From: Paracoccaceae bacterium
GTDB lineage: Bacteria > Pseudomonadota > Alphaproteobacteria > Rhodobacterales > Rhodobacteraceae
Length of the DNA: 64,000 bases
Assembly: GCA_958296035.1 (NCBI GenBank)
Contig: OY282431.1
Coordinates: 2,214,037-2,278,036, forward strand
Direction: 5' to 3'
Each line of letters opens with the position of its first letter. Position 1 is the first letter of the stretch. Both the position numbers and the translations under genes were made by a program. Positions 41,809-50,169 of this stretch are shown here, in pieces. The notes under the pieces were generated by a model. It was not told the origin of the DNA, ran no database searches, and was given only the letters and a program-made list of their open reading frames with translations.

Positions 41809-41892
41809 ATCAGAACCGGCGGACATAGACGTTGCGGCCACCGAACGCGTCCTTCAGACGGCCATTGACCCGTTCCGCAGTGCTGCGCAATC
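41809..41892 (-). pseudogene. C-terminal fragment of the IS4/IS5-superfamily DDE transposase gene (split by IS66)
   Basis: Reads (R)LRSTAERVNGRLKDAFGGRNVYVRRF*. It continues ...DPASLRYRLR at 44702+ once IS66 and one copy of the 8-bp duplication are removed. Confidence 0.6.
41885..41892. repeat. 8-bp target-site duplication GCGCAATC (left copy) of the IS66 insertion
   Basis: Identical octamer at 44702-44709, immediately outside both inverted repeats. Confidence 0.85.
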
Positions 41893-41915
41893 GTAAGCGG
41901 GCAAACTGGTACGTC
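41893..41915. repeat. IS66 terminal inverted repeat (GTAAGCGGGCAAACTGGTACGTC)
   Basis: Perfect reverse complement of 44679-44701. Confidence 0.9.
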
Positions 41916-42151
41916 ATCGAGTCATTCCTAATCGTGAATACAGTGCTCGTCGACATCTTGCATAACTTTGTTAGAGACACAATAAGGGCTAGTTAACGTC
42001 CATATATTGTGGTTCTAGAGAATATTTCTGCTTGACACCTCTGCCCCTTCGTGCTAGAGAACGTCATGCTCAAGTTCGACAGTACATCACCGTATCCAGC
42101 CCCGTTCGGGCCGCTTTTCCAGCCCCGAAAAGCGCCATCGGGAGGTCGGTC

Positions 42152-43879
42152 ATGACACCGAAACGGGCCCTCGAAAAGGCACTGGCTGAACGGAATGCAG
42201 CACGAAAAGACGTCGCCTCTCTCACACAAGAAATTGCCTCTCTCAGGCGTCAGATAGAGTGGTTCAAGCGCCAGCTCTTCGGCGCCACATCCGAACGGCA
42301 GACGGTCAGGACGCCCGAGCAGGGACGCGACATGTTCGAGGCCGCCGGCGTCGAGTCCGGCGCCGAGACCGCCCCGTCATCCGATGATGACGCGCCGGAT
42401 GACCCGTCGACTTGTGCCGGTCAGGCCGAGGAGAAGAAGAAACGCAAGCGCGGCAAGAAGAAGCGTGGCCCTGCCGTCAATGACAGCGGTCTGCGCTTTG
42501 ATGCCGATGTTCCGGTCCAGGATGTGTATCTTGAACCGGAGGGTCTTGACGGCATTCCCGGGGACGAACTCGAGAAGGTCGGCGAGCATGTGGTCTGCAA
42601 GCTGGTCACCCGTCGCGAGACCTCGCACGTCGCCCGCTTCATCATGCCGATCTACAAGCGCCGCGAGACCAACGCCTTCCTCCCGGTTCCGACGCCCCCG
42701 TCGGTCTTCGAGAGCAGTTGCGTCGATGTCAGTTTCATCGCCCGTATGCTGATCGACAAGTTCATCTGGCATATGCCCCTCAATCGCCAGCACCGGCGTC
42801 TGTCTGCGGACGGCATTGAGGTCAGCCGCTCGAGCCTCAGGGGCTGGGTGCGACGTGCGATTGACCTTCTCTGTCCGCTGGCCGAGGCGCAGTGGCGCTC
42901 TGTCCTGGCGAGCGATGTCATCATGATGGACGAGACATATCTCCGGGCCGGCCGGATATCACGGGGCAAGATGCGCCGCGGCGTGTTGTGGCCGGTGCTG
43001 GGCGACCGGGGCGAGATTGTGTTTCATTACCGGCCCGATCGCCAGCACCATCATGTGGGGGGCATTCTGGGCGACTGGTCCGGGGTTTTGCACAGCGATG
43101 GCTATGGGGCTTATGCGGCCTGGTCGGAGGCGATGTCGGGACGGGTTGCGCATGCGTTGTGCTGGGCGCACACCCGTCGCAAGTTCGAGGGCTGCAAGGA
43201 TCATGAGCCCGAGCATGCGGGGCGTGCTCTGGCGTTGATTGCCAAGATGTACCTGACCGAGCGGGAGGCGCGTGCGGACGGCACATCGGGGGTTGCGTTG
43301 CTGGCTGCCCGTCATAAGCTGCTGGCGCCGGCGATGGCGGCCTTCTGGGAGTGGCATGGGACGATGCTGGCGCGTGACTGGTTGCCGAAGGATCCGTTCT
43401 ACCAGGCTCTGTGTTATGCCGGAGAGCGGCGTGCCGGGCTTGAGGTGTGTCTGGGTCATGCCGGTGTTCGTCTGGATACCAACGAACTGGAGCGCCAGAT
43501 CCGCCCCATAGCGACGGGTCGCAGGAACTGGCTGTTTGCCTGGAGCGAGGCCGGTGCCCGCGACATCGCCACCATCCAGTCCTTGCTTCTGACCTGTCAA
43601 TTGCAGTGTGTTGATGTCTGGACCTGGCTGGTCGATGTCCTGCAGCGTGTGGCCCTGCATCCGGCCCGGCTGGTCGAGGAGTTGACGCCCCGCCGCTGGC
43701 CAGACGTGTTTGGTGCGGCGCCCTTGGGCTCGGTTGTCAGTCAGCGGCCCTTCGGCGGTTCGGCCGGCGTCTATACCCCGGACCCGGAACGGCCCTGTGC
43801 ATCTCCCCGGGCCGGCATGGCGGCGCCGGGACAGCCCATTCCGATGTCACCTCTCAAGCGGTCATGGCGACAATCCTGA
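42152..43879 (+). CDS. tnpC: IS66-family transposase TnpC
   Basis: N-terminal coiled coil plus LFGATSERQ. DDE region (MMDETYL, HSDGYGAY, CWAHTRRKF). GGAGG Shine-Dalgarno sequence 7 nt upstream of ATG 42152. Unusually long C-terminal tail. Confidence 0.85.
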   Translation: MTPKRALEKALAERNAARKDVASLTQEIASLRRQIEWFKRQLFGATSERQTVRTPEQGRDMFEAAGVESGAETAPSSDDDAPDDPSTCAGQAEEKKKRKRGKKKRGPAVNDSGLRFDADVPVQDVYLEPEGLDGIPGDELEKVGEHVVCKLVTRRETSHVARFIMPIYKRRETNAFLPVPTPPSVFESSCVDVSFIARMLIDKFIWHMPLNRQHRRLSADGIEVSRSSLRGWVRRAIDLLCPLAEAQWRSVLASDVIMMDETYLRAGRISRGKMRRGVLWPVLGDRGEIVFHYRPDRQHHHVGGILGDWSGVLHSDGYGAYAAWSEAMSGRVAHALCWAHTRRKFEGCKDHEPEHAGRALALIAKMYLTEREARADGTSGVALLAARHKLLAPAMAAFWEWHGTMLARDWLPKDPFYQALCYAGERRAGLEVCLGHAGVRLDTNELERQIRPIATGRRNWLFAWSEAGARDIATIQSLLLTCQLQCVDVWTWLVDVLQRVALHPARLVEELTPRRWPDVFGAAPLGSVVSQRPFGGSAGVYTPDPERPCASPRAGMAAPGQPIPMSPLKRSWRQS

Positions 43880-43933
43880 CCACACGACACATCCCTGACC
43901 TGGCCTGAGGCGAGGCCGGCCGGCCCGGCGCCG

Positions 43934-44287
43934 TCAGGCGGCCCGGGCGTACCGTTTGCGTTGTCTTGACTTGATGATGTCGATGCCGTCGACCAGCGCC
44001 ATGAGCCCGGTGGCCGAGACCGGCTCGGCCGGATTGCTGGAGATGAGCCGGGTAAAGAGGCCGCTCTCCAGGCGCTTGGACCAGATCCAGTAGCCGCCCC
44101 GGTCGAAGGCGATGACCTTGAGCATGGTGCGGCGTCGATTGAGGAAGACATACCAGTCCCCCGAGATCGGGTTGCGGCCGAGGCGGTTGCGCACCAAGGC
44201 CGAAAGCCCGTCATAGGACAGGCGCATGTCGGCGGGTTCGGTGGCCAGCCAGATGCGGCCCCGGCCGGGAAAGCCGGACCCGATCAT
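43934..44287 (-). CDS. tnpB: IS66 Orf2-like protein TnpB
   Basis: 117 aa from MIGSGFPG (ATG 44287, ATGA overlap with tnpA). Motifs DMRLSYDGL and VFLNRRRTMLKV. Confidence 0.85.
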   Translation of the reverse strand: MIGSGFPGRGRIWLATEPADMRLSYDGLSALVRNRLGRNPISGDWYVFLNRRRTMLKVIAFDRGGYWIWSKRLESGLFTRLISSNPAEPVSATGLMALVDGIDIIKSRQRKRYARAA

Positions 44288-44610
44288 GACCGGCGCATCC
44301 GCAAGACAACATCGGGCCCGAGCGTGAGCTCGATCTCCCAGTGCGGCTGTGCAGCTGGTCCGAGATTGACAAAGGGCGGCGTGACCGGGGCGGCGGCCGT
44401 GTGGCTGCCGGTGTCTTTGCGGAAGCGCTGGCACCATCTCCGGAACGTGCTGTAGCGGAGACCCTGTGTGTCGCAAAAGTCCCGGCGTGTCAGCTCCGAT
44501 GATTGCCAGGTGTCATAGATGTCCCGCCACTGATCACGGCTCCGCACAGGAGCGCGCTGTGGGGTGGGTGGTGATTGTGAAATGCCGTTCTCCATGGGCC
44601 TTGTCTCCAT
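44284..44610 (-). CDS. tnpA: IS66 Orf1-like HTH protein TnpA
   Basis: 108 aa. RRDFCDTQGLRYSTFRRWCQRF HTH-like block. 91 nt inside the right inverted repeat. Confidence 0.8.
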   Translation of the reverse strand: METRPMENGISQSPPTPQRAPVRSRDQWRDIYDTWQSSELTRRDFCDTQGLRYSTFRRWCQRFRKDTGSHTAAAPVTPPFVNLGPAAQPHWEIELTLGPDVVLRMRRS

Positions 44611-44678
44611 CTGTTGTCACGGGATTGACCGAATTCAGATGATCGGAGAACAGATGCTGATCGTCAACAGCTAATCAG

Positions 44679-44701
44679 GACGTACCAGTTTGCCCGCTTA
44701 C
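44679..44701. repeat. IS66 terminal inverted repeat (right)
   Basis: Reverse complement of 41893-41915. Confidence 0.9.
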
Positions 44702-44709
44702 GCGCAATC
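44702..44709. repeat. 8-bp target-site duplication GCGCAATC (right copy)
   Basis: Identical to 41885-41892. Confidence 0.85.
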
Positions 44710-47769: not shown

Positions 47770-48855
47770 TCAATTGTCGGACTTACGGCGATTACAGGGT
47801 TTGCAGAGCATCTGGCAATTTTCCTCGTTGGTCTTGCCACCCTCGACCCATGGGGTGATGTGGTCCCCTTCCATCCTTGATATGGCGAATGGCTTCATGC
47901 AGTGCTTGCACTTGCCGTCCTGCTTCTCGTACACCTTAAGCTTCATGGCCTTCGTGAAGGCCCGGATGTTGAGATGTTTCGCATCGCGGGTCAAGATATA
48001 GGGGTAGATGCCGGCCTTCTTTGTCACATCGTCATCAAGGATCAGCCTTGCCACCTCGGCTTCAATTGCCTTCGGGTCGAGATCGCGCCTGTTCTTGTGG
48101 TCGTTGTAGAGATCGCCCCACTGCACGCCCTTCATGAATGACCGTTTTTCGGTAAACGTCGTCTCGACCCAGCTGATCACCGACTGGAAGTAGCGCCAGA
48201 GCTCCCCGGCCGTAGGGTCGTGCTGGTGGCTGGACATGTACTCTTCGATCTGATCATTGCTGATCCATCTGAGGGCGGTCTCCAGATACACCTGGCGGAT
48301 CGGCGAACCTTTGAGATAATCCTCGCCGAGGCCATAGGCCGGCCCACCAGGACGGCTGAAATGGCGCCGGGCATCCGCCAGCCAAGGACCGGCATAGACG
48401 GCATTGCGCAGCTCCTGCCGGGTCAGGACCTCCCCGGCAATGTTGATGATCTCATACCACTTCAGTTTTTCGCTGTCTTTCCCGGAGCAGAGATACACCA
48501 TGAGCGTGTAATCAAGGATCCGGTCCCGTTGGTCGCTCTGCAGGTTGTGGAAAGCCAGGCCGTTGATGGAGAATACGCCATCCACATACTGGCCGATCGA
48601 GATGGTCCGCTGCTGGCCATCAATGATCTCGAACGTGCCGTCGCCGCGGTCCGCCCAATACATGACGTTCAGGGGAAACCCTTGCCGAACGGTTTCGATG
48701 ACTGCATCGCGCTGCTTGTCCTTGTAGACAAACTCGCGCTGATAGGGCGGGCGGATGTCAAGCTTGCCACCATAACCGACAACCCCGCCATCGCCGTCAT
48801 CCTTGTAGCCTTCCACCAGCTCGCGGACAGTGATGTCAAGGAGTTCAATTCTCAT
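47770..48855 (-). CDS. DUF262 (ParB/Srx-like, GmrSD N-domain) protein with a C-terminal HNH nuclease
   Basis: PPYQREFVY and IIDGQQR motifs. C-terminal CKHC...DHITPW..GG.T...NCQMLCKPCNRRK (HNH). Start at MRIELL (ATG 48855, ATGA overlap with the methylase stop). Confidence 0.85.
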   Translation of the reverse strand: MRIELLDITVRELVEGYKDDGDGGVVGYGGKLDIRPPYQREFVYKDKQRDAVIETVRQGFPLNVMYWADRGDGTFEIIDGQQRTISIGQYVDGVFSINGLAFHNLQSDQRDRILDYTLMVYLCSGKDSEKLKWYEIINIAGEVLTRQELRNAVYAGPWLADARRHFSRPGGPAYGLGEDYLKGSPIRQVYLETALRWISNDQIEEYMSSHQHDPTAGELWRYFQSVISWVETTFTEKRSFMKGVQWGDLYNDHKNRRDLDPKAIEAEVARLILDDDVTKKAGIYPYILTRDAKHLNIRAFTKAMKLKVYEKQDGKCKHCMKPFAISRMEGDHITPWVEGGKTNEENCQMLCKPCNRRKSDN

Positions 48856-49853
48856 GGCTGTGGTTTCCTGTTGCGGATAATGAGCCGGGAGTATTTCCTT
48901 ATGCCTCTGATATAGCCGCGGTCGATTTTTCCTTGCCATTCAGGAATCAAAAGATGGGGAAGTAACCCGTCCTTTATGTCATAATCCGAACCGATGATCT
49001 CAAACTGGTCCGGGTTGTGCTTGTCCAGGAACGTGATCGGCACCCCCATCACACCACCATAGTCCATCGGGATCTCCTTGGTCTTGTCCACGTTGATCGC
49101 ATCATAGTTGTCGTATTTCGGGTATTCCTCCGGTGAGTACTGCTTGTACAGGATCAAATCCTCATGGCGCTTTGCGTGGTCGAGGTTGGTGAACCAAACC
49201 ACGCCGGAAACCCTGATCATTCCTTCCTTCCGATCAGTAGCCACTGCATGATCCTCGTAATTGCTTATAAAATGACCCGCTCCACCCTTGAAGCCGAAAC
49301 CCAACCACACCCTGTTCTCCTTGATCAGCGGGAAGAAATCCTTGTAGGTGATGGCGTTCTGATGTCCGATGATGATGAACTTCTTGTCGTGCTCAATTAG
49401 CTGGGCAACATATTCCCGAAACAGTGAGAAGGGCGGGTTGGTGACCACGATGTCGGCCCGCTTCAGCAGCTCGACACACTCATCGCTGCGGAAGTCACCG
49501 TCACCCTCGAGGTGCTTGATCCCGATATCCTCGGCCCTGGGCACATGGTCTCCCTCCCGAAAACCGTCATATTCCAGCTTGATGGCCCGCTCGGCATCAT
49601 GCTTTGAAAACAGGTCCCGCTGCTGGTTCTTGTAGCAGGTGGTGACCAGCTTCTTCAGCCCAAGATGTTCGAAGTTGTACGAGAAGTAGTGGAAGAAATT
49701 GCTCACCCGGGGGTCGTCGCAATTGCAGTAGACAGTCTTGCCCCTGAAGTGTGGCTTGTAGTGGCGCAACTCGTTCTCGATGTCCGTGAGCTGCGTGTAG
49801 AAATCGTCGTTCTTCCCTCTTTGTGCCAAGTGCAGGCTTTTATTCAGAGACAT
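48852..49853 (-). CDS. N6-adenine DNA methyltransferase, EcoRI-methylase-like family
   Basis: DDFYTQ...VYCNCDDPRVSNFFHYF N-terminal block and catalytic VVTNPPF motif. Start set to MSLNKSL (ATG 49853). Confidence 0.8.
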   Translation of the reverse strand: MSLNKSLHLAQRGKNDDFYTQLTDIENELRHYKPHFRGKTVYCNCDDPRVSNFFHYFSYNFEHLGLKKLVTTCYKNQQRDLFSKHDAERAIKLEYDGFREGDHVPRAEDIGIKHLEGDGDFRSDECVELLKRADIVVTNPPFSLFREYVAQLIEHDKKFIIIGHQNAITYKDFFPLIKENRVWLGFGFKGGAGHFISNYEDHAVATDRKEGMIRVSGVVWFTNLDHAKRHEDLILYKQYSPEEYPKYDNYDAINVDKTKEIPMDYGGVMGVPITFLDKHNPDQFEIIGSDYDIKDGLLPHLLIPEWQGKIDRGYIRGIRKYSRLIIRNRKPQP

Positions 49854-49935
49854 GAGTTTGCTCCAAATCACTCCGAAAGGATCCACTATTGGTTGTCATG
49901 TAAACTCGACAGCAAGTCAACCTGCGGGCATGCAA

Positions 49936-50070
49936 TCACTTTCCGGAAGGCGCTATCTGGGGCTGTCCATAGGCAGCAAAAAGGCAGTTCAGGGCCTCGC
50001 CGGTCAACGACTGGACCGTCGTATCCTGCTCAACGGCAAGCATCTTTACCTGCTTGGCAACTTCCGGCAA
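49936..50070 (-). pseudogene. possible ribbon-helix-helix (CopG/ParG-like) remnant
   Basis: Sub-threshold ORF (L)PEVAKQVKMLAVEQDTTVQSLTGEALNCLFAAYGQPQIA*, preceded by an in-frame TGA. The pattern resembles RHH antitoxin/partition proteins. Confidence 0.2.
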
Positions 50071-50169
50071 AATATATCAGCCCACAAACGACTTGCCAAC
50101 CCGGGACCGGCTGCGGCAAACACGTCGCCGGCTTGCGGCCATCAAGACCATGTGACACCACATTGCCTC

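Follow-up and report, generated by a model that had tools for sequence, protein, structure and literature searches.

A BanLI-type restriction-modification operon in a Paracoccaceae genome, and a nuclease family that stays constant beside shuffling methylases

Within a 64,000-nucleotide stretch of the genome of a Paracoccaceae bacterium (GenBank assembly GCA_958296035.1, contig OY282431.1, positions 2,214,037 to 2,278,036 of the forward strand; hereafter the window), positions 47770 to 49853 carry two overlapping genes, one for an EcoRI-family N6-adenine DNA methylase and one for a nuclease that joins a DUF262 domain to an HNH domain. A note made earlier from the sequence alone (hereafter the original prediction) had described them as an atypical, type II-like restriction-modification (R-M) pair. 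Both genes are real and intact and lie where that prediction placed them, and the overlap of the methylase stop with the nuclease start is likewise borne out; the strand, which needed correction, is the minus strand for both genes. The features of the pair are as follows.

48852 to 49853, minus strand: EcoRI-family N6-adenine DNA methyltransferase, 333 amino acids, M.BanLI homologue (from PF13651, PADLOC and identity to M.BanLI)
49428 to 49439, minus strand: catalytic motif IV, NPPF, methylase residues 139-142 (read directly from the sequence)
48852 to 48855, minus strand: ATGA in which the TGA stop of the methylase gene overlaps the ATG start of the nuclease gene, translational coupling (from the sequence and relatives)
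47770 to 48855, minus strand: DUF262(ParB/Srx-like)-helical-HNH nuclease, 361 amino acids, R.BanLI homologue (from PADLOC, identity to R.BanLI and an AlphaFold model)
48394 to 48756, minus strand: DUF262/GmrSD_N ParB-like, putative nucleoside triphosphate (NTP)-binding domain, nuclease residues 34-154 (Pfam PF03235, E 2e-16)
47776 to 47910, minus strand: nuclease residues 316-360, an HNH domain of the beta-beta-alpha-metal type that includes zinc-binding cysteines (Pfam PF01844, E 3e-14)

The methylase matches the Pfam family EcoRI_methylase (PF13651) from end to end (E 1e-135) and the PADLOC model MTase_II (PDLC03297) over its full length (E 1e-122). Its ATG at 49853 has GGAG in front of it, and a longer version that starts at a GTG at 49886 is unlikely because the N-terminus MSLNKSLH agrees with that of relatives. 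The VVTNPPF sequence reported earlier is present, and its NPPF is invariant in 27 aligned methylase relatives. A search of solved structures by sequence produced no match to the methylase. The nuclease matches the PADLOC model REase_II (PDLC03418) over its full length (E 3e-132), and the YQREF, DGQQR (48607-48621) and HNH elements had also been read correctly. Among 38 aligned nucleases, YQREF and DGQQR are invariant, as are R35, P36, Q39, R40 and D79-T84 of the DUF262 domain and C316, C319, D331, H332, N346, C351 and N355 of the HNH domain, where D331, H332, N346 and N355 are the catalytic residues.

An AlphaFold model of the nuclease has a predicted local distance difference test score (pLDDT) of 88. 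When this model was searched with Foldseek, its N-terminus matched cytidine triphosphate (CTP)-binding domains of ParB and Noc (probability 0.9-0.98), and its C-terminus resembles HNH nucleases by fold, namely PDB 4h9d and the HNH domain of Cas9. BrxU is a weak match over the whole chain, and a sequence search of solved structures returned only generic HNH matches (5h0m and 4h9d). The helical middle (residues ~155-300) matched nothing in the fold search, in which the ParB-like and HNH parts were the only ones matched and no separate sequence-reading domain turned up. Pfam places no DUF1524 in the nuclease, the C-terminus of which is HNH PF01844, and neither Pfam nor the fold search revealed a superfamily-2 helicase/ATPase or PD-(D/E)XK domain in addition to DUF262 and HNH. 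Because the DUF262 motif is conserved and the fold matches ParB/Noc, it is reasonable to suspect that DUF262 serves as an NTP-binding regulatory domain. Two other identities were considered for the nuclease or its family. The LcaA2P HNH subfamily (Orlowski and Bujnicki 2008) was rejected, as LcaA2P enzymes are I-HmuI-like homing nucleases, and the CATG-specific systems CviAII and NlaIII gained no support from a literature search.

A partly characterized relative of both proteins is the BanLI R-M system of Bifidobacterium animalis subsp. lactis (O'Connell Motherway et al. 2014, PMC3990576). That system comprises a methylase of 41.7 kDa, for which an alignment with M.EcoRI was given, and a "restriction subunit" of 43.5 kDa, whose nuclease domains were not named (PMC3990576). 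M.BanLI alone places N6-methyladenine (m6A) on only one strand of the asymmetric sequence RTCAGG, and methylation by M.BanLI raises transformation by 1.8-fold; in Escherichia coli, the cloned system restricts phage P1vir by about 10-fold, which is a weak effect (efficiency of plating [EOP] about 0.1; PMC3990576). Using the exact cloning primer sequence from that work (PMC3990576), we located the BanLI locus in gut metagenome contigs, where an integrase gene is followed by genes for a 370-amino-acid PF13651-type methylase, the C-terminus of which (EEAQGK) is in line with the reverse primer, and an overlapping 372-amino-acid DUF262-HNH protein. The published "RM.BanLI" forward primer fits the start of the upstream integrase gene (MAKRET) and not the methylase gene.

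R.BanLI is 55% identical to the window nuclease (361/372 amino acids, E 6e-145), and M.BanLI is 49% identical to the window methylase over its full length (E 2e-113). Because both proteins are homologous to their BanLI counterparts, the window pair is a BanLI-type R-M system, and it constitutes an intact, horizontally acquired operon of a catalogued but barely studied kind. The two loci also share their gene order, with the EcoRI-family methylase preceding an overlapping DUF262-HNH nuclease, and their position beside mobility genes (the integrase in the case of BanLI). The m6A motif and the weak restriction are known for BanLI only, from the work of others. The window methylase probably does not recognize RTCAGG, because BanLI differs in the two variable cassettes described below, carrying an A4-type cassette A and a cassette B of its own. 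A further difference is that R.BanLI (L112:4589-5707) is without the second cysteine of its C-terminal CxxC pair, reading CVKDN where the window nuclease has CKPCN and most family members have CKxCN. The loss of this zinc-binding cysteine may contribute to the weakness of BanLI restriction.

The description of the pair as atypical does not hold. DUF262-HNH nucleases are the usual partners of PF13651 methylases, PADLOC counts the pair as Type II, and a named and partly studied member exists. The proposal that the methylase has the DUF262-HNH protein as its conserved partner in restriction is upheld, given that the pairing is strict in both directions and the BanLI homologue restricts. We collected 80 genomic loci with nucleases 61-76% identical to that of the window, and all 77 of those with enough upstream DNA to test have a PF13651 methylase gene upstream on the same strand. 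The same 4-nucleotide overlap recurs in 29 of the 77, and the spacing between the two genes falls between -15 and +30 nucleotides in 62. Among 401 genomes drawn evenly from the phylum, the nuclease occurs in six and PF13651 occurs in the same six, adjacent every time, such that each of the six methylases has a DUF262-HNH partner. The arrangement extends to more distant homologues, with 37-41% identity, from an Enterococcus faecium plasmid and Flavobacterium phage laban6-1, where the nuclease gene again follows a PF13651 methylase gene directly, as it does in many plasmid copies.

The nuclease family is large, with >8000 clusters at 90% identity and ~475 clusters at 50% identity (E <= 1e-30), and it extends through bacteria, archaea (metagenome-assembled genomes [MAGs] of Nanoarchaeota), plasmids and phages. 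Across phyla, nuclease identity remains at about 65-70%. Many of the closest homologues of the window nuclease come from MAGs labelled Poribacteria, Poriferihabitaceae and Spongiisociaceae, which are sponge-associated lineages, and from Arenicellales MAGs. Literature searches for DUF262-HNH, ParB-HNH and PF13651 did not find a description of the pair by these terms, and the PADLOC paper does not state how its REase_II models were built.

What is unusual about the family emerged from an alignment of 64 methylase-nuclease pairs, in which two segments of the methylase behave as exchangeable cassettes. In the window, these are located as follows.

49188 to 49313, minus strand: methylase variable cassette A, residues about 181-222, of the type GFGFKGGAGHF...EGMIRVSGV (from the alignment of relatives)
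48888 to 48998, minus strand: methylase variable cassette B, residues about 286-322, of the type SDYDIKDGLLPHLLIPEWQGKIDRGYIRG (from the alignment of relatives)

Cassette A occurs as at least six discrete, unrelated types and cassette B as at least eight, the latter with insertions and deletions, and both are embedded between well-conserved flanks. The two sets of types combine freely. Cassette B-b, for example, accompanies A1 in the window methylase, A6 in L009 and A3 in L027, and in L076 A1 is joined to B-a. In the same pairs, the nuclease has a fixed length of 360-363 amino acids and is evenly conserved (column conservation 0.5-0.9). Nuclease identity correlates with identity in the methylase core at a Spearman coefficient of 0.28, compared with 0.05 for cassette A and 0.13 for cassette B, and no region of the nuclease covaries with the cassettes among the aligned pairs.

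Individual comparisons make the same point. The nucleases of L083 and L084 are three conservative substitutions apart (99% identical) and accompany B cassettes that are only 23% identical, and those of L076 and L081 are 98% identical beside B cassettes with 9% identity. Overall, cassettes that are 9-36% identical are found beside nucleases that are 98-99% identical. Among operons from Kingella, N. lactamica and N. perflava (Neisseriaceae), whose nucleases are 92-95% identical, two A types and two B types are found in every combination. At the DNA level, these operons are 85-100% identical, with an abrupt fall to 33-46% precisely where the cassettes lie; the values for cassette A are 40-46%. 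The puzzle of a constant nuclease beside a shuffling methylase is real at the level of the family, and we found no treatment of it in the searchable literature.

Three loci (L017, L039 and L040) have two or three tandem methylase genes with different cassettes before a single nuclease gene. The three-methylase locus L017 (MPNP01000127.1, "Rhodobacteraceae bacterium bin131") is the same sequence as L002 of a congener (G003:C358). The places that encode one nuclease sequence (P0095) were compared to see whether it occurs beside different methylases, and this proved uninformative because all 10 places represent the same organism and context.

Two side observations concern the methylase genes. First, many relatives carry tracts of G7-G10 at one conserved place just before cassette B, where the GG codons of the sequence D-W/Y-G-G-V-M-G-V-P lie (L017:1636, 2750 and 3799; L020:3838; L033:3793; L039:2832 and 3812; L062:3801; L087:3776), and L010 has (AG)13 there in place of the G tract (L010:3295). 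Three sequences (L017_b, L039_a and P0122) are frameshifted exactly at the tract, and the window methylase has only G5 there, within 49037-49055. These tracts look like a means of phase variation of the methylase, and, given the translational coupling, a methylase in its off phase would also switch off the nuclease. Second, scrambled fragments of a second cassette operon occur in the same genome as the window, in L008 (G000:C1:2588983-2592042) at about 2589970-2590731. They include a 118-nucleotide piece that is 93% identical and encodes methylase residues 271-309 (cassette B) with 100% amino acid identity, as well as nuclease 3'-end pieces and downstream DNA in inverted order. These fragments may be a decayed copy or perhaps a silent cassette.

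Several natural fusion proteins exist. In P0125, P0126 and P0162, independent in-frame deletions have joined a complete methylase to the HNH-bearing tail of the nuclease, with loss of DUF262. P0276 (688 amino acids) joins a methylase-like domain, in which NPPF has degenerated to FPSF, to a full nuclease, and P0124 is a fusion of two methylases with different cassettes. A search with the concatenated methylase and nuclease as the query recovered the three deletion fusions and one full-length fusion, P0122, which is a frameshift read-through.

How, then, might a constant nuclease serve methylases of changing specificity? We tentatively favor a mechanism, to which we assign somewhat less than an even chance, in which, as in Type III systems, the choice of target belongs to the methylase, the nuclease has no specificity of its own, and the ParB-like NTP-binding domain gates the HNH domain. 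The methylase would mark adenines with m6A at a sequence determined by swappable loops, namely cassettes A and B. The nuclease would be a restriction subunit directed to its target by the methylase, most likely within a complex of the two proteins that attacks unmethylated sites in the manner of Mod and Res. DUF262 could then function as a switch or clamp that depends on NTP and permits HNH to cut, which is the purely inferential step of the scheme. The ATGA coupling would keep nuclease synthesis dependent on translation of the methylase.

Several observations lead in this direction. In gamma-class enzymes, recognition elements follow motif IV, and the cassettes are taken to be specificity loops because they are the only modular, recombining parts and are located after that motif. 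If the cassettes set the recognized sequence while the nuclease stays unchanged, then the nuclease would not be reading the same sequence by itself. A one-strand mark at an asymmetric site, as made by the single BanLI methylase, would be unsafe in combination with an independent type IIS nuclease, and marking of one strand is the pattern of Type III and IIL systems. Guidance by the methylase is also suggested by the tie to one methylase family over deep divergence, together with translational coupling and in-frame fusions, and by the fact that tandem methylases with different cassettes can serve one nuclease. An NTP-gated switch is proposed for DUF262 because its predicted NTP-pocket residues are invariant, as are the catalytic residues of HNH, and because its fold matches ParB/Noc and the fold search turned up no separate sequence-reading module.

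A bolder formulation is that BanLI-like systems constitute an undescribed R-M class, which we consider possible rather than probable. In such a class, which would follow Type III logic, a gamma-class methylase with two exchangeable loops would provide all specificity, and a constant subunit composed of a ParB-like NTP switch and an HNH nuclease would be recruited to unmethylated sites, perhaps as a sliding, nucleotide-gated clamp that links sites. Recombination of cassettes would re-assort specificity, tandem methylases would multiply it, and repeat tracts would switch it, with the nuclease itself never changing.

There are also points that weigh against methylase guidance. PADLOC and REBASE file the family as ordinary Type II, and the authors who studied BanLI interpreted its single methylase as a degenerate type IIS system (PMC3990576). 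Restriction by BanLI is weak, with its EOP of about 0.1. Both the setting of sequence specificity by the cassettes and the methylase-nuclease complex are putative. The AlphaFold model of the methylase (pLDDT 55, and <50 over residues 180-281) is too poor to place the cassettes on a face that binds DNA. Full-length fusions are rare, the fusion search is weak evidence, and the deletion fusions could be decay products that the search selects for being in frame by chance.

One rival explanation is an orthodox Type II system (IIP or IIS), in which the nuclease reads a fixed sequence, every methylase motif places m6A inside that site, and swapping of cassettes alters only which additional sites become methylated. 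This explanation is unlikely in our estimation. In its favor, PADLOC's REase_II model covers the full length of the nuclease, BanLI is listed as Type II and its R.BanLI was treated as a type II subunit by its authors (PMC3990576), and the high conservation of the nuclease across phyla is what would be expected if all members cut one sequence. However, many unrelated combinations of cassettes would all have to cover one common site, which is conceivable but strained. Furthermore, the one-strand mark of M.BanLI on its asymmetric site would leave one daughter duplex unprotected against an independent nuclease. No nuclease region varies with the cassettes, and the fold search of the nuclease model gave neither a separate sequence-reading domain nor any match for the helical middle. 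Near-identical nucleases beside methylases with different recognition-like cassettes argue against the type II-like assignment of the original prediction, which is probably wrong in mechanism. The prediction's other suggestion, that the methylase is a decoy or an epigenetic partner, found no support.

It is also conceivable, if rather doubtful, that the nuclease senses the mark in the manner of SspE. A nuclease without sequence specificity would then act without binding the methylase, with DUF262 detecting m6A and responding by NTP hydrolysis or unloading such that HNH is kept off, and DNA lacking the host density of m6A would be nicked or cut. Such sensing would also account for a constant nuclease beside a methylase whose specificity changes freely, and DUF262 sensors are known in GmrSD and BrxU, which detect modified cytosines, and in SspE, which detects the phosphorothioate of its partner module (PMC12707154, PMC8713573). 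A sensor of m6A would nevertheless be expected to accompany other m6A methylase families too, whereas the nuclease is tied to PF13651 even at 37% identity. Phage DNA with Dam-type or other m6A would pass as self, and the natural fusions that keep the methylase and HNH without DUF262 do not fit a role for DUF262 as the sensor.

Far less credible is the idea that the operon is a selfish or mobility module in which the HNH protein is mainly an addiction toxin or a homing or cassette-mobilizing nuclease rather than an anti-phage factor. The operon is indeed mobile and patchy, being found in 6 of 401 genomes, on plasmids, in phages, and beside insertion sequence (IS) elements and an integrase gene, and the phage protection conferred by BanLI is weak (PMC3990576). 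Yet BanLI does lower phage plating and plasmid uptake, homing nucleases need neither a ParB-like NTP domain nor a strictly coupled methylase, and the loci seen share no conserved insertion site. Finally, an ordinary type IV (modification-dependent) nuclease with an unrelated methylase as its neighbor, to which the GmrSD_N family membership of the N-terminal domain and the weak structural match to BrxU might point, is effectively excluded by a pairing that is strict, ancient and translationally coupled, by the suicidal outcome of an m6A-dependent nuclease beside an m6A methylase, and by a C-terminus that is canonical HNH and not DUF1524.

The original prediction placed the pair between IS remnants, which is only partly right. 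The left flank holds a complete IS66-family element and IS fragments, and on the right flank a broken ribbon-helix-helix (RHH) gene remnant, and no IS, lies directly upstream of the methylase. The two flanking features are as follows.

41881 to 44708, no strand assigned: complete IS66-family insertion sequence, 2.8 kb (from TnpB_IS66 PF05717 and genomic copies)
49936 to 50115, minus strand: leader with a broken RHH (Antitox_RHH) gene remnant, in-frame TGA at 50077-50079 (90% identical to an intact RHH gene)

At least 12 copies of the IS66-family element, 99-100% identical, occur in the 3.64-Mb genome, a sign of recent transposition bursts, and repeated IS fragments make up a patchwork at 44.7-47.3 kb. 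The pair itself lies within a strain-specific islet of about 44.7-51.5 kb, with a guanine-plus-cytosine fraction of 0.52-0.58, that is common to no congener. The islet's flanks occur in one congener only and are on separate contigs there, such that an empty site is not definable. Homologous, non-orthologous pairs (68-76% DNA identity) are present in 5-6 of 13 congeners searched, or in seven if partial matches are included, and often there are several per genome. Because the pair is this frequent among congeners compared with 5 of 400 in the phylum sample, it looks as if it has been gained horizontally and repeatedly.

The intact counterpart of the broken RHH gene lies behind parA at G000:C1:42770-43033. 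The 265 nucleotides upstream of the methylase (window 49851-50115), as far as the ribosome-binding site (RBS) and ATG, are 90% identical to the 3' part of this parA-RHH module (L106, G000:C1:41500-44500, at 1271-1534), which precedes an Eco57I-family methylase gene. A shorter copy that is 79% identical and does not reach the RBS (L107, G000:C1:785300-788300, at 1207-1392) precedes a gene for a 499-amino-acid protein without a Pfam or PADLOC match. Perhaps this is a recurring partition-like module with variable defense cargo behind it. The only sigma-70-like site in the leader (50071-50099, minus strand; TTGGCA-17-TATATT with an upstream TG) is not above chance expectation and spans the in-frame TGA, which is GGA in the intact RHH copy. 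The mutations that kill the RHH gene also improve the match to the -10 element, as judged by consensus only. No Rfam family was found in 46-52 kb, and no structured RNA leader is evident.

Considered by itself, the window adds another intact example of a common R-M operon that is already catalogued. The wider interest lies in a family that has thousands of members filed as Type II and a comparative pattern at odds with a nuclease that finds its own target. If the methylase does direct the nuclease, then the family would represent a compact two-protein system with reprogrammable specificity and a new use of the ParB/CTPase fold, and the motif predictions and "Type II" labels that databases attach to it would need revision.

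The BanLI family can be compared with several established systems. EcoRI, which is Type IIP, resembles it in that M.EcoRI belongs to PF13651 and has NPPF at the same position. In contrast, R.EcoRI is an unrelated nuclease of the PD-(D/E)XK type and recognizes GAATTC on its own. GmrSD, BrxU and SspE resemble the window nuclease in having an N-terminal, DGQQR-containing ParB-like DUF262 domain, followed by a helical region and, at the C-terminus, a His-Me finger nuclease, and NTP modulates the characterized members. SspE is additionally similar in being the restriction partner of a host modification module. These proteins differ in combining DUF262 with DUF1524 in about 600 amino acids, whereas the window nuclease has a canonical HNH domain (PF01844) in about 360. 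Moreover, GmrSD and BrxU act against modified DNA without a cognate methylase, whereas the nuclease family of the window is obligatorily paired with an m6A methylase.

Parallels in logic are found with Type III systems such as EcoP15I and EcoP1I, which are built from Mod and Res. There, the variable recognition region resides in the methylase while the nuclease subunit is constant, as the comparative pattern suggests for the BanLI family, and the operon order is likewise Mod followed by Res. One-strand m6A at an asymmetric site, a feature of BanLI, is also shared, and the poly-G or dinucleotide repeats in the methylase genes of relatives are reminiscent of phase-variable mod genes. The components are different, however. 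Type III systems use a helicase/ATPase motor and a PD-(D/E)XK nuclease where the BanLI family has a ParB-like NTP-binding domain and HNH, and they pair this machinery with a beta-class Mod rather than the gamma-class, EcoRI-family methylase seen here, in which the corresponding complex is putative.

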